IMG/VR virus record: IMGVR_UViG_2706794695_000003
DNA from: a virus
Taxonomy: Duplodnaviria; Heunggongvirae; Uroviricota; Caudoviricetes
DNA length: 9,386 nt
Direction: 5' to 3' (one strand)
How positions within the stretch are numbered: position 1 is the stretch's first letter; the number at the start of each line of letters is the position of its first letter. This document shows, piece after piece, positions 1-7,547 of the stretch. The notes beneath the pieces were generated by a model. That model worked only from the letters and a program-made list of their open reading frames with translations, ran no database searches and was not told the DNA's origin. Position numbers and translations under genes: made by a program.

Positions 1-20
1 AGAGCCTGTCCAATGTGCAT
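1..20 (-). CDS. Possible 5' end of the next head-module gene (partial, runs off the window)
   Basis: ATG at 20..18 on the minus strand directly after the T-run of the hairpin at 27..54; frame stays open to the window edge. Only 6 codons are visible and there is no clear Shine-Dalgarno, so identity and reality are unknown. Confidence 0.2.
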
Positions 21-4425: not shown

Positions 4426-4700
4426 NNNNNNNNNNNNNNNNNNNNNNNNNNNNNNNNNNNNNNNNNNNNNNNNNNNNNNNNNNNNNNNNNNNNNNNNNNN
4501 NNNNNNNNNNNNNNNNNNNNNNNNNNNNNNNNNNNNNNNNNNNNNNNNNNNNNNNNNNNNNNNNNNNNNNNNNNNNNNNNNNNNNNNNNNNNNNNNNNNN
4601 NNNNNNNNNNNNNNNNNNNNNNNNNNNNNNNNNNNNNNNNNNNNNNNNNNNNNNNNNNNNNNNNNNNNNNNNNNNNNNNNNNNNNNNNNNNNNNNNNNNN
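4426..4700. other. N-masked gap (275 N)
   Basis: Run of n. Hides the body and 3' end of the endolysin gene and the 5' part of Rz. Confidence 1.
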
Positions 4701-4963: not shown

Positions 4964-5192
4964 NNNNNNNNNNNNNNNNNNNNNNNNNNNNNNNNNNNNN
5001 NNNNNNNNNNNNNNNNNNNNNNNNNNNNNNNNNNNNNNNNNNNNNNNNNNNNNNNNNNNNNNNNNNNNNNNNNNNNNNNNNNNNNNNNNNNNNNNNNNNN
5101 NNNNNNNNNNNNNNNNNNNNNNNNNNNNNNNNNNNNNNNNNNNNNNNNNNNNNNNNNNNNNNNNNNNNNNNNNNNNNNNNNNNNNNNNNNNN
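4964..5192. other. N-masked gap (229 N)
   Basis: Run of n. Hides the holin start and whatever lies between the tRNA cluster and the holin. Confidence 1.
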
Positions 5193-5255: not shown

Positions 5256-5330
<75 letters not shown>

Positions 5331-5333
5331 ATA

Positions 5334-5409
<76 letters not shown>

Positions 5410-5411
5410 GC

Positions 5412-5488
5412 TGGCCCACCACCGAGGACTCGAACCTCGCACCGTCAACTTAGAAGGTTGATGCTCTATCCGGATGAGCTAGTGGTGG
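5412..5488 (-). tRNA. tRNA-Arg (anticodon UCU)
   Basis: 77-nt cloverleaf: acceptor CCACCAC/GTGGTGG (unusual C1-G72), D-stem GCTC/GAGC, anticodon stem TCAAC/GTTGA, loop CTTCTAA, T-arm CGAGG-TTCGAGT-CCTCG, CCA encoded. Confidence 0.75.
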
Positions 5489-5489
5489 T

Positions 5490-5566
5490 TGGTGGCCCTT
5501 GCTGGACTTGAACCAGCGACCTGGCGATTATGAGTCGCTCGCTCTGACCAACTGAGCTAAAGGGCC
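5490..5566 (-). tRNA. tRNA with anticodon CAU; likely Ile2 (lysidine, ileX/ileZ-like) rather than Met
   Basis: 77-nt cloverleaf: acceptor GGCCCTT/AAGGGCC, D-arm GCTC-AGTTGGTCA-GAGC, anticodon loop CTCATAA, T-arm GCTGG-TTCAAGT-CCAGC, CCA encoded. Overall close to my recollection of E. coli ileX. Confidence 0.75.
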
Positions 5567-5604: not shown

Positions 5605-5652
5605 ACTCATCTGACCACCAGCACGTTTAACGTCCTGTGCCGTTTTTCAGGT

Positions 5653-5680
5653 ATAAAAAAACCCGCTCATCGGCGGGTTT
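5653..5680 (-). terminator. Rho-independent terminator downstream of the ORF6N-domain gene
   Basis: Minus strand: stem ACCCGC/GCGGGT (forward 5661..5678) with a 6-nt loop, followed by 8 T (forward A-run 5653..5660). Confidence 0.6.
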
Positions 5681-5755
5681 AAGCTGTGTGGCGTAGTAAC
5701 CACTCTTAACAGGATATTCAACTTTTTACGATCGTAAAGTTTTCGGAAAAAATTT

Positions 5756-6319
5756 TTAAAACCGCATCAACCGCTCCACCAGTTGCTCTTTACGGGCAAC
5801 GATCCACCCGTGTTGCTCCAGATAAAATTTAAACCGTTCCAGAGTACATACCATCGCATCGGCGGGTACCTTTTCCGTGAACTCAACCTGACCGTGTTTA
5901 TCGAAGTGGCTCAGTAATGCGCATCCATCATTTTCGATAGATGTGTTTTGTGCCGCTGGTGGCTGTTTCTGGTTGAAATAACAGTCTTCCAGTTTTTCGA
6001 ACACTTCCCACGCCTGATCGGTTTCGAGCATTTTGGCGTGACGGGCTGCGCCACGTTCTGTCCAGAGGATGAGGGAGCGAACGTTACGGGCAATTTTCAC
6101 AGAAACTCTTAAAGAGTTTTCGTTCTTCAACTCTCGTAACGCATCACCTTCTATCAGGAAAAAATGTTTACCTTCTATAAACCGTTCTTTGTTTCGATTG
6201 AAATTGTTTGTCAAACGCTGGCGCTCTGTTCCGTACAAATCAGCCAGCAGCTCTGTTGTCATGACAGGAAGATGGTTATGCGTAAGTGACGGGAGTTTTT
6301 CAATAGACGTGCGATTCAT
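5756..6319 (-). CDS. ORF6N-domain protein (antirepressor-like DNA-binding N-terminus, C-terminal domain of unknown function); accessory cargo gene
   Basis: ORF open from 6517 (GTG) to stop TAA 5758..5756. Preferred start is ATG 6319..6317, with AAGGA 7 nt upstream, giving 187 aa. The N-terminus (…LPVMTTELLADLYGTERQRLTNNFNRNKERFIEGKHFFLIEGDALRELK…) fits the ORF6N pattern as I recall it; the C-terminal ~100 aa is unrecognised. Confidence 0.7.
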   Translation of the reverse strand: MNRTSIEKLPSLTHNHLPVMTTELLADLYGTERQRLTNNFNRNKERFIEGKHFFLIEGDALRELKNENSLRVSVKIARNVRSLILWTERGAARHAKMLETDQAWEVFEKLEDCYFNQKQPPAAQNTSIENDGCALLSHFDKHGQVEFTEKVPADAMVCTLERFKFYLEQHGWIVARKEQLVERLMRF

Positions 6320-6525
6320 AGACATGTCCTTTCGAATATTTTGATTTACCCCTTTTGAGAGGGTGACCGGGCGCTCAAAACCGTCGAAAGTCGGCGGGCG
6401 TATTTCCATTGCTGGTATTGTATTAGCCGCACACCCGGTCATAAACCAAGAATTCTGGACACAAAAAAACCACATGGCTATCGGGTGTGGATACCGCTTT
6501 CGAGGTGTTTTGAGCACCGCGGGGA

Positions 6526-6554
6526 AATGTAAACTGCAAACCTGAAACTGTCAA
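6526..6554 (-). promoter_or_regulatory. Candidate sigma70 promoter upstream of the ORF6N-domain gene
   Basis: Minus strand: perfect -35 TTGACA (6554..6549), 17-nt spacer, -10 TACATT (6531..6526). The -35 lies inside the 7-bp inverted repeat AACCTGA-N14-TCAGGTT (forward 6539..6566). Confidence 0.35.
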
Positions 6555-6679
6555 CACCGTCAGGTTCCAATCATCGGGTGGTGAGACGCACAGGGTTGGA
6601 ACTACCGGGAAACCGACCGGCGAGCTTTTCAGCTCCCCCATGCGCCCCACCATAATTCAGATGTGCGCGTGCATACGAC

Positions 6680-6704
6680 AATAAAAAACACGCTCGCGGC
6701 GTGT
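6680..6704 (-). terminator. tR'-like intrinsic terminator ending a short pR' leader RNA
   Basis: Minus strand: stem ACACGC/GCGTGT (forward 6688..6704) with a 5-nt loop, followed by TTTTTTATT; about 75-80 nt downstream of the predicted pR' start. Confidence 0.6.
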
Positions 6705-6765
6705 GTCTGTCGCGGTCTCTATCCGGGGTTCCAATCCCGACGCCAGATTTTGCTGGCGCGTGAGG

Positions 6766-6795
6766 AATATAGCCCCGGACAATGTGTCTGGTCAA
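6766..6795 (-). promoter_or_regulatory. pR'-like late promoter immediately downstream of Q
   Basis: Minus strand: -35 TTGACC (6795..6790), 18-nt spacer, -10 TATATT (6771..6766), starting 5 nt after the Q stop. The early transcript carries hairpins GCGCCAG-N6-CTGGCG and CGGG-N8-CCCG before the terminator, so the qut region would be here. Confidence 0.55.
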
Positions 6796-6799
6796 GCAC

Positions 6800-7186
6800 C
6801 TACATAATTCGTTCTACGTATCTGTCCATCTCCAGCCGGATATCAAGCATCATCAACATGCCATCAATAACCCCTTCCGCTTTCTGCAGGCGCTTGCCAA
6901 TACAGGTATCCGAACACCCATGTTTCCGTGCCAGACTCATAAAAGTCATTCCACCTACGTAATAATCCACCAGCAAATCGTGCAAATCCTGATTTTTCTT
7001 GTTCAACCGGGCCATACAGCCACAAATTATCATTGCATCATCATCAGAACACTGAGGGCGTGATTTCACTTTCGACGGAATTAACCCTTTAAAACCAGCA
7101 GCGATCGACGCCCAGGATACATCTTCATGAGTGTTTGCAGCCCAAGCCCCCCACCGTTCCATAACCTGCTGAATATCACGCGCCAT
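6800..7186 (-). CDS. Q: Late-gene antiterminator Q (short QuuD/phage-21-like type, not lambda-Q type)
   Basis: [61 protein letters not shown]…[23 protein letters not shown]… matches my recollection of the about 127-aa QuuD/Q21-family proteins. Start taken as ATG 7186..7184 with AGGTGA 5 nt upstream (the track ORF extends to 7207); stop TAG 6802..6800; followed by pR'. Confidence 0.85.
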
Positions 7187-7547
7187 CGTTATCACCTGTG
7201 ATTTCATAAATCTTCACGCCCAGTCGCCCACCAGGAACGAGCTGACCGCGCACAATATTGATTTCATCAAACTGCTCGTCGTCTATGAGTAGTCCGGCAT
7301 GCGTCAGCGCATCCAGTGGTGCTTTCAGGATATTGTCCAGGTCACGACGGCGCTTATCCGGTGGCTCTGCAATAATCTTTATCGCCAGCCTTCCGGACAG
7401 GTTTAATTTCAGCCGCTGCTGGCGAACAATTAGCGTCACATCACGGCGATAACGCTCACCAACTTTTGATACAAAATATGTGCTGCCACGACGTCGCCAG
7501 TAAGTATTCACCGTCGGCGGATAAGGTAAAATAAACTCATGGCGCAT
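7176..7547 (-). CDS. rusA: Holliday junction resolvase RusA
   Basis: 123-aa ORF with RusA-like sequence (…[12 protein letters not shown]…, …[27 protein letters not shown]…); ATG 7547..7545 overlaps the upstream stop (TGATG); sits in the nin-region position just before Q. Confidence 0.88.

Follow-up and report, generated by a model that had tools for sequence, protein, structure and literature searches.

A probable AnrP-type antirepressor gene in the late region of a lambdoid prophage, with sRNA-Xcc1 as its likely C4-type translational gate

C4 control of antirepressors is classical, and the gene family treated here is known. In phages P1 and P7, c4 RNA blocks translation of ant at the ribosome-binding site (RBS) and sets heteroimmunity (review PMC12197685). 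In Gifsy-1, where the genes follow the order Q, isrK, orf45/STnc1160 (C4), anrP, isrJ, a tRNA gene and, further on, the lysis genes, the promoter PisrK transcribes anrP, and the mRNA is untranslated until the short IsrK RNA is supplied in trans (139-fold; PMC4825925). When AnrP is expressed, mRNA from the antQ operon rises and the prophage is induced (Hershko-Shalev et al. 2016, PMC4825925), and deletion of PisrK abolishes phage production (PMC4825925). Here we compare these systems with an ORF6N-domain gene in a 9,386-nt stretch of viral DNA (Caudoviricetes; IMG/VR record IMGVR_UViG_2706794695_000003). The whole of this stretch is referred to below as the window; it comprises the late region of a lambdoid prophage and is read here along the minus strand.

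We consider it likely that this gene encodes an AnrP-type antirepressor and sits in a portable cassette in which a small RNA (sRNA) element, sRNA-Xcc1, serves as a C4-type translational gate. Between the antiterminator gene Q and the start codon, four Rfam elements were recognised on the coding strand, all above their gathering scores: c4-a1b1, IsrK, C4 and sRNA-Xcc1 (Table 1). A first-pass annotation of this DNA had placed an ORF6N gene in the slot between Q and the lysis genes. That placement is correct, with Q upstream and tRNA and lysis genes downstream. The annotation had missed the RNA elements (c4-a1b1/IsrK, C4 and sRNA-Xcc1) as well as a second promoter with its terminated leader. The match to sRNA-Xcc1 is full length (model positions 1-87) and scores 77.4 bits, compared with a gathering score of 53. 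Complements of its hairpin-2 loop (b') and of the joiner that follows this hairpin (a') occur both in the leader (b1, a1) and next to the Shine-Dalgarno (SD) sequence of the gene (b2, a2). The duplex of the leader with the 3' half of Xcc1 had an energy of -26.1 kcal/mol, which 0 of 500 shuffles reached. Folding C4 or Xcc1 as whole-sequence duplexes with their flanks was uninformative, except in the case of Xcc1 with its own leader. RNAalifold applied to the Xcc1-type leaders recovered the terminator stem only; the hairpin that presents a1 comes from single-sequence folds and inspection by eye.

We also surveyed 80 loci that encode relatives of the protein, drawn from gamma-, beta- and deltaproteobacterial genomes and a few records from other phyla, by scanning them with Rfam. 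sRNA-Xcc1 was present in 30 loci and C4 in 19, in both cases ending ~50-75 nt before the protein match, and C4 was mostly accompanied by IsrK ~20-25 nt upstream. C4 and Xcc1 share one position before one gene family. In one additional locus C4 was found at a greater distance. In two loci (L062, 2881-2952; L080, 2899-2967), the gene is directly preceded, on the opposite strand, by the P22 sar RNA (RF00262), a third type of RNA gate for the ORF6N family.

Among 34 distinct Xcc1 loci, the hairpin-2 loop occurs as 24 different sequences, and the targets change alongside. The b' loop is complementary to a site at or adjoining the SD sequence of the gene (b2) in each of these loci, and in most it also matches b1 in the leader. 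The joiner a' matches the a1 loop of the first leader hairpin and a second site, a2, a few nucleotides 5' of b2. When the mean longest perfect match was compared for cognate and non-cognate partners, the cognate partners gave longer matches at b2 (7.1 versus 4.6 nt), b1 (6.7 versus 5.1 nt), a2 (6.6 versus 5.2 nt) and a1 (7.7 versus 5.7 nt). Duplex energies gave the same picture, with cognate and non-cognate values of -17.1 and -10.1 kcal/mol in the SD window (p = 7e-17) and of -22.6 and -17.6 kcal/mol in the leader (p = 3e-12). For a covariation count, 15 loci from Pectobacterium, Serratia, Photorhabdus and relatives were aligned with MAFFT. The named pairs hold in 89% of the cells, compared with 39-53% when the partners were slid by 1-3 columns; a few rows of the alignment are out of register, which lowers rather than raises the count. 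Both sides change in 12 of the 25 pairs, a number reached by 0 of 500 shuffles, and compensatory changes were found in 5 of 8 pairs of the b':b2 helix and in 4 of 7 pairs of the a':a2 helix. Xcc1 thus seems to be functionally like C4, though it goes undetected by the C4 model. The closing stem of Xcc1 is followed by ACC in the window and by N-C-C in all 34 Xcc1 loci, often as N-C-C-A, an end that resembles a tRNA acceptor. Hartmann et al. are said to have described in 1995 that a tRNA-like end makes the C4 precursor a substrate of RNase P. The N-C-C end suggests that Xcc1 may be processed by RNase P in the way reported for C4.

The working model takes its processing, repression, titration and protein target from the paradigms of P1/P7 immI and Gifsy-1 isrK, and its elements, their order, homology and covariation from our analysis. 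The cassette consists, in order, of a sigma-70 promoter, a short terminated leader carrying the predicted decoys a1/b1, Xcc1, a2/b2 over the SD sequence, the gene and a terminator. Its promoter would be active in the lysogen, and the majority of transcripts would end at the leader terminator to give a decoy RNA of ~57 nt. Read-through transcripts would give rise to the 84-nt Xcc1 RNA, with RNase P probably cutting at the tRNA-like stem and RCC end. Free Xcc1 would use its hairpin-2 loop and 3' joiner to pair with a2/b2 on the mRNA, so that the RBS is hidden and no antirepressor is made. Leader RNA or mRNA in excess of Xcc1 would titrate the antisense RNA and allow the protein to be translated. 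Such an excess might arise through a promoter upshift, through replication of the prophage, through an incoming relative of the same specificity or through terminator-resistant transcription from upstream. The antirepressor would then inactivate a repressor and drive or reinforce induction. Expression in the lysogen, as proposed in the first-pass annotation, thus probably applies to the RNAs and not to the protein. The antirepressor protein is probably off in the lysogen because the antisense RNA is predicted to cover the RBS. RNA expression in lysogens is supported for Gifsy-1, where both IsrK and STnc1160 reach high abundance in every condition tested (PMC7067206).

The cassette promoter, P2, is not above chance when taken alone, as 8 promoter-like sites were found in the window compared with 7.1 expected. 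However, a TTGACN-16..18-TANNNT site is present 112-121 or 142-146 nt upstream of Xcc1 in 29 of the 34 distinct Xcc1 loci, compared with just 3% of 200-nt windows drawn at random from these loci. We take P2 to be a real promoter because its position is conserved across homologous cassettes, and not on the basis of a single match. The stretch that begins at the TTGACA of P2 and runs to the gene accounts for ~200 nt beyond the Gifsy-1 layout, between C4 and the gene. A unit running from the -35 hexamer to the gene also precedes antB of phage Nil2, in the nin region, and an anti-repressor gene of TL-2011c, in the early-left region. The left border of the homology with these cassettes is the P2 -35 hexamer itself, and in both phages another gene lies between the Xcc1-type unit and the isrK-C4 unit. 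The cassette therefore moves as a whole. Thus a promoter of its own, a dedicated terminator (present, though outside the interval originally marked) and a self-contained unit, all of which had been proposed for this gene, are borne out. The list of open reading frames (ORFs) contains no small ORF between Xcc1 and the ORF6N gene.

A promoter and a terminator that both travel with the gene, a location in a classic cargo site and a C-terminal domain without known relatives would also be expected of a stand-alone accessory ('moron') gene, whose protein is made in the lysogen to benefit the host or in some other role and whose RNA matches are incidental. We regard this explanation as very unlikely. 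Conserved RNA elements, with loops that covary with the RBS, fill the leader from the promoter to the start codon, the homologue AnrP is transcribed and yet untranslated in the resting lysogen, and the protein family is a phage regulatory one.

We examined the gene product in relation to AnrP. The mechanical ORF extends from 6517 to 5756 on the minus strand, but the real start is most likely the ATG at 6319, which gives a protein of 187 amino acids (aa). This start was chosen because the SD sequence AAGGA lies 7 nt upstream, because the closest homologues are also 187 aa long, and because a stop codon in E. coli EC12 closes the upstream in-frame extension, including the in-frame ATG at 6409. 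Longer frames (253 aa from GTG 6517 and 217 aa from ATG 6409) were rejected, as they cross Xcc1 and are not conserved. The closest database protein, from Shigella sonnei, is 187 aa long and 99% identical. Pfam ORF6N (PF10543) matches aa 15-99 (E = 9e-21; 74.4 bits compared with a cut-off of 27.8); the conserved N-terminal region extends to about aa 117, and the AlphaFold model is confident to about aa 115. In this model a disordered linker at aa 118-130 leads to a C-terminal domain of ~57 aa (aa 131-187) with a beta-hairpin of two strands and two helices, at a predicted local distance difference test score of ~75-90. The domain has no match in Pfam, PDB or BFVD. An unrecognised C-terminal domain had been noted before, and that description stands except for its size, which had been put at ~100 aa. 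A search of NCBIfam with the protein also gave no match.

The profile of PHROG 2379, annotated 'anti-repressor', is matched at positions 2-187 of 187 (E = 3.2e-85), the C-terminal domain included. Using tblastn against phage genomes, we found STM2616 of Gifsy-1 (AnrP) among the two most complete matches; pairwise alignment gave 49% identity over aa 5-186 (E = 6e-58), again with the C-terminal domain within the alignment. Judged by position and sequence, the gene is orthologous to AnrP. We place the protein in the AnrP-type antirepressor family, with inactivation of a repressor suggested by the phenotype of AnrP. The function had been called unknown in the first-pass annotation, with an anti-repressor among several candidates. 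Full-length homology to AnrP with the same Q synteny, together with the PHROG match, now points to that candidate. The annotation had also named two findings that would count against its own reading. One, alignment over the full length to a known antirepressor beside a repressor gene, comes close to what we observed, although the neighbour is Q and not a repressor gene. On the other, disruption of the ORF in most related prophages, homologues are annotated as intact across many E. coli genomes.

Relatives of the protein combine the near-invariant N-terminal 117 aa with differing C-terminal domains, including P22_AR_C in AntB of Nil2. The N-terminal region would be a common scaffold, and the swappable C-terminal domain would pick the partner. 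ORF6N is reportedly grouped with KilA-N-type DNA-binding domains (according to the Pfam description and to Iyer et al. in 2002), and the name 'antirepressor' itself derives from family annotation and phenotype. The protein could therefore be regarded as a DNA-binding transcription factor that acts on phage promoters directly, with the RNA gate unchanged. The best structural matches are winged-helix DNA binders, at non-significant scores, and raised transcription, not repressor binding, is what the Gifsy-1 paper shows. However, the exchange of the C-terminal domain for P22_AR_C fits partner-specific protein binding better, and we consider a direct transcription factor improbable.

A further explanation is an RNA-antitoxin/toxin or abortive-infection module, in which Xcc1 restrains a toxic ORF6N protein until phage attack or loss of the element sets it free, for a benefit in defence or addiction and not in control of the prophage's induction. 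In Xanthomonas integron cassettes, Xcc1 lies upstream of the toxin gene symE on the same strand, an arrangement whose regulation has been called 'divergent' (10.1101/2025.06.18.660453), and over-expression of the isrK locus halts the growth of Salmonella. Weak PADLOC hits to PDC-S05, a candidate defence family, were also obtained (E = 1e-7), but these are confined to the ORF6N domain. The toxicity seen with Gifsy-1 was traced to AntQ, downstream of prophage derepression driven by AnrP, and toxicity of the ORF6N protein itself is not known. Fusions to P22_AR_C and the contexts with C4 and sar point to antirepressors. A toxin module is thus unlikely, and an AnrP-type antirepressor remains the preferred assignment.

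Ahead of the Xcc1 cassette, IsrK and C4 form a second, older unit of the same kind. The resemblance to Gifsy-1 is extensive: both loci lie directly downstream of Q, IsrK has its own promoter and terminator, C4 is homologous, the promoter region including PisrK can be aligned, the protein is a full-length homologue, and one or more tRNA genes followed by lysis genes lie downstream. Among the differences from Gifsy-1 are the extra ~200 nt, in which sRNA-Xcc1 is preceded by a second promoter with another terminated leader. The Q proteins also differ (135 aa and PF06530 in the window; 225 aa and phage-82-like in Gifsy-1), and IsrJ (RF01393), present in Gifsy-1, gave no match in the window even at E <= 1.

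The C4 of the window differs from that of Gifsy-1 in having no site at the SD sequence of the gene. Its joiner has a 7-nt match, TTGGAAC, in the leader, and the a2-like target of the joiner is retained right after C4. The best match of its hairpin-2 loop to downstream sequence is 4 nt, with no SD sequence following. In most other C4-type loci examined, the loop matches 6-10 nt at the SD sequence or start codon of the ORF6N gene (5 nt in EC12 and L050), and the joiner as a rule finds a 7-nt match immediately after C4 and a further one in IsrK. This pairing is the scheme published for P1/P7. By its pairing sites, the C4 of the window is an orphan that has lost its ribosome-site target. Since C4 is without such a target, Xcc1 and not C4 would gate the gene. 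EC12 has the same layout, an orphan C4 followed by the Xcc1 cassette. The order found here after Q, an orphan IsrK-C4 unit followed by a complete Xcc1 cassette, represents a variant of the Gifsy-1 locus and is shared with some E. coli prophages.

The frame equivalent to orf45 starts at the same two AUGs inside C4 as orf45 of Gifsy-1. In Gifsy-1 the stop codon of orf45 is at the start of anrP; in the window a promoter, a terminator and Xcc1 intervene. The frame crosses P2 and stops inside Xcc1, 104 nt before the ATG at 6319, and translational coupling to the gene is therefore impossible. The different length and end point of the frame favour a reading of 6423-6653 as non-coding RNA.

PisrK as a late promoter would fit the loss of Gifsy-1 phage production on deletion of PisrK. 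Assignment of PisrK as Q-specific on the basis of its position was rejected, as it moves with the isrK-C4 module to sites without Q (the nin region in Nil2 and near int in F765). When an O157 strain was compared for a Q-dependent late promoter, the sequence that follows its related Q gene proved unrelated. Genes like Q are found directly upstream of C4- or Xcc1-type cassettes in five surveyed loci (L011, L061, L028, L039 and L040, from Trabulsiella, Izhakiella and Symbiopectobacterium), and the slot after Q is a recurrent, independently used home for such cassettes. Tandem stacking was observed elsewhere in the survey as two Xcc1-ORF6N cassettes in L012 (2637-3292) and two isrK-C4 modules in L013 (2745-3950).

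The Xcc1 cassette also resembles immI of P1/P7 (c4 RNA, icd, ant1/ant2). In both, the leader encodes an antisense RNA that shares its strand with the gene under its control, the targets are duplicated as a1/b1 upstream and a2/b2 at the RBS, specificity varies among relatives, and the controlled gene is an antirepressor. The downstream pair a2/b2 at the RBS is present for Xcc1, while the C4 of the window has a2 only. Unlike immI, the window has no coupled ORF resembling icd, its gating RNA is Xcc1, which the C4 model does not see, and it lies in a lambdoid late region whereas P1 and P7 are plasmid prophages. Small-RNA control of an anti-immunity gene is likewise a feature of P22 immI (ant and sar) and of P4 CI/seqA-seqC, and the Gifsy-1 authors consider IsrK a structural homologue of the P4 SeqA RNA (PMC4825925). 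The link to P22 extends to sar itself, in the two ORF6N loci described above, and to P22_AR_C as the C-terminal domain of relatives. However, sar is made from the opposite strand, and P4 CI acts through transcription termination on replication genes. The original sRNA-Xcc1 (RF02221) was described from Xanthomonas campestris as integron-borne and trans-acting, with its target unknown (Chen et al. 2011), and other papers treat it as a virulence-linked sRNA acting in trans. In APSE phages, one paper places Xcc1 upstream of an ORF6N gene, without interpretation. In contrast to the original description, sRNA-Xcc1 is found here in the leader of an antirepressor-family gene in a lambdoid prophage, with covarying targets in cis. 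A description of sRNA-Xcc1 as a C4-type gate was not found in the searchable open-access literature.

Several points weigh against the proposed gate. The Xcc1-mRNA duplex in the window has an energy of -14.0 kcal/mol, which 45 of 500 shuffles reached and which is not significant alone; the case for the mRNA site therefore rests on the comparison of loci. The strong leader duplex and the modest mRNA duplex would fit a leader that out-competes the mRNA for Xcc1. The structure used for the covariation count was derived from the same sequences that were counted, and 28 of the 80 ORF6N loci have no recognised upstream RNA. Xcc1-ORF6N cassettes, this locus included, are known from sequence. The C4 covariance model gave no match to Xcc1 at E <= 1, and the likeness of the two RNAs may be convergence. 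In Xanthomonas, sRNA-Xcc1 is described as trans-acting and controlled by HrpG/HrpX. For Gifsy-1, the authors explain activation by binding of IsrK to the mRNA and coupling through orf45, not by titration of C4, and over-production of STnc1160 strengthened the growth arrest mediated by IsrK (PMC4825925). A role of AnrP as a repressor binder is drawn from its induction phenotype, and the repressor gene of this prophage lies outside the window.

Table 1. Positions of the cassette, of the upstream IsrK-C4 unit and of neighbouring genes in the window
Feature	Position	Strand	Remarks
Cassette promoter P2	6526..6554	minus	TTGACA-17-TACATT; predicted start near 6519
Leader 2	6463..6519	minus	IsrK-like decoy, ~57 nt
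a1 GCUCAAAAC	6507..6515	minus	In loop of first leader hairpin
b1 UCGAAAG	6497..6503	minus	Just before leader terminator
Leader-2 terminator hairpin	6470..6490	minus	Followed by U-run 6469..6463
sRNA-Xcc1 element	6357..6440	minus	84 nt; Rfam RF02221
Xcc1 hairpin-2 loop b' CUUUCGA	6384..6390	minus	
Xcc1 joiner a' UUUUGAG	6374..6380	minus	Unpaired, 3' of hairpin 2
Predicted Xcc1 target on mRNA	6327..6359	minus	
a2 candidate CUCAAAA	6353..6359	minus	Complementary to a'
a2 candidate AUCAAAAU	6338..6345	minus	Complementary to a'
b2 UCGAAAG	6329..6335	minus	Overlaps SD AAGGA 6331..6327
ORF6N antirepressor-family gene	5756..6319	minus	187 aa; AnrP homologue
Intrinsic terminator 3' of gene	5659..5680	minus	8-bp stem, then U-run
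Conserved 3' non-coding element	5614..5717	minus	Around terminator 5680..5659
Promoter-like site PisrK	6766..6795	minus	TTGACC-18-TATATT; predicted start at IsrK model position 1
c4-a1b1	6720..6772	minus	Upstream a1/b1 copy of C4 targets; Rfam RF03163, 50.1 bits
IsrK	6683..6759	minus	RF01394, 77.5 bits; overlaps c4-a1b1
IsrK intrinsic terminator	6688..6704	minus	
C4 antisense RNA	6574..6657	minus	Gifsy-1 STnc1160/'orf45' equivalent; RF01695, 71 bits
a2-like target of C4 joiner GAUUGGAAC	6572..6564	minus	
orf45-equivalent frame	6653..6423	minus	76 codons
Q antiterminator gene	6800..7207	minus	135 aa; Pfam PF06530, E = 2.7e-52
DnaB-like helicase and RusA genes		minus	First in order, before Q
Four tRNA genes (Met-CAT, Arg-TCT, Thr-TGT, Gly-TCC)	5256..5566	minus	Between ORF6N cassette and lysis genes
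Lysis genes (holin/endolysin/Rz region)		minus	Next after tRNA genes; partly N-masked
HNH endonuclease, small and large terminase subunits, portal gene		minus	Beyond lysis genes

The distribution of the region was also examined in E. coli. The best E. coli DNA match across the whole region is strain EC12, at 87.6% identity. A region of 1,261 nt is covered to at least 80% in 2 of 5,426 E. coli genomes and in parts in 1,349, so that parts are present in about one quarter of complete E. coli genomes, at up to five places per genome.

The conserved element around the terminator downstream of the gene may be a late-operon leader. It is also found without an ORF6N gene in an ST131 prophage, upstream of late genes, where it immediately precedes a small ORF, a DNA methyltransferase gene and a holin gene and lies behind DUF262/HEPN defence genes. 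Assignment of this element as pR'/tR' could not be shown. The tRNA cluster occupies the place where Shiga toxin (Stx) phages have ileZ-argN-argO, and its tRNA with the CAT anticodon may be of the Ile2 type. Runs of N at 4426-4700 (275 bases) and 4964-5192 (229 bases) leave the lysis genes not fully readable. In related prophages, hok/sok type I toxin-antitoxin loci were observed a few kb from the ORF6N gene, mostly upstream (L001, 3478-3648; L005, 387-562; L007, 376-526; L014, 1140-1286; also L025 and L056).

We hold it about equally probable, or not, that the arrangement has a wider meaning: that sRNA-Xcc1 would be no free-standing virulence sRNA but a functional counterpart of P1 C4, serving as immunity RNA to a portable, self-gated cassette distributed across Proteobacteria. 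A decoy near the promoter and the RBS of the downstream antirepressor (or of a toxin such as symE) would carry matching sites, and a hypervariable loop (at least 24 alleles among 34 loci) would barcode co-resident prophages against cross-triggering. In the window this cassette would be stacked behind an orphan IsrK-C4 unit that may double as a Q-dependent late leader and so couple late transcription to release of the antirepressor.

For Gifsy-1, the comparison suggests a simpler reading in which IsrK is a decoy for the C4 homologue, although this conflicts with one of the authors' experiments. For sRNA-Xcc1, the proposed gate provides a concrete target in cis and a mechanism that can be checked by compensatory mutations in the loop and the SD sequence. 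To a specialist the gene itself would be ordinary; the reassignment of Xcc1 and the diversity of loop alleles are worth a bench test. What had been an unknown cargo gene becomes a testable switch for SOS-independent induction of prophages in lambdoid phages of the Shigella/E. coli type, including relatives of the Stx phages, in which the same modules occur. The many loop alleles suggest an RNA specificity code for cross-talk or insulation among co-resident prophages.

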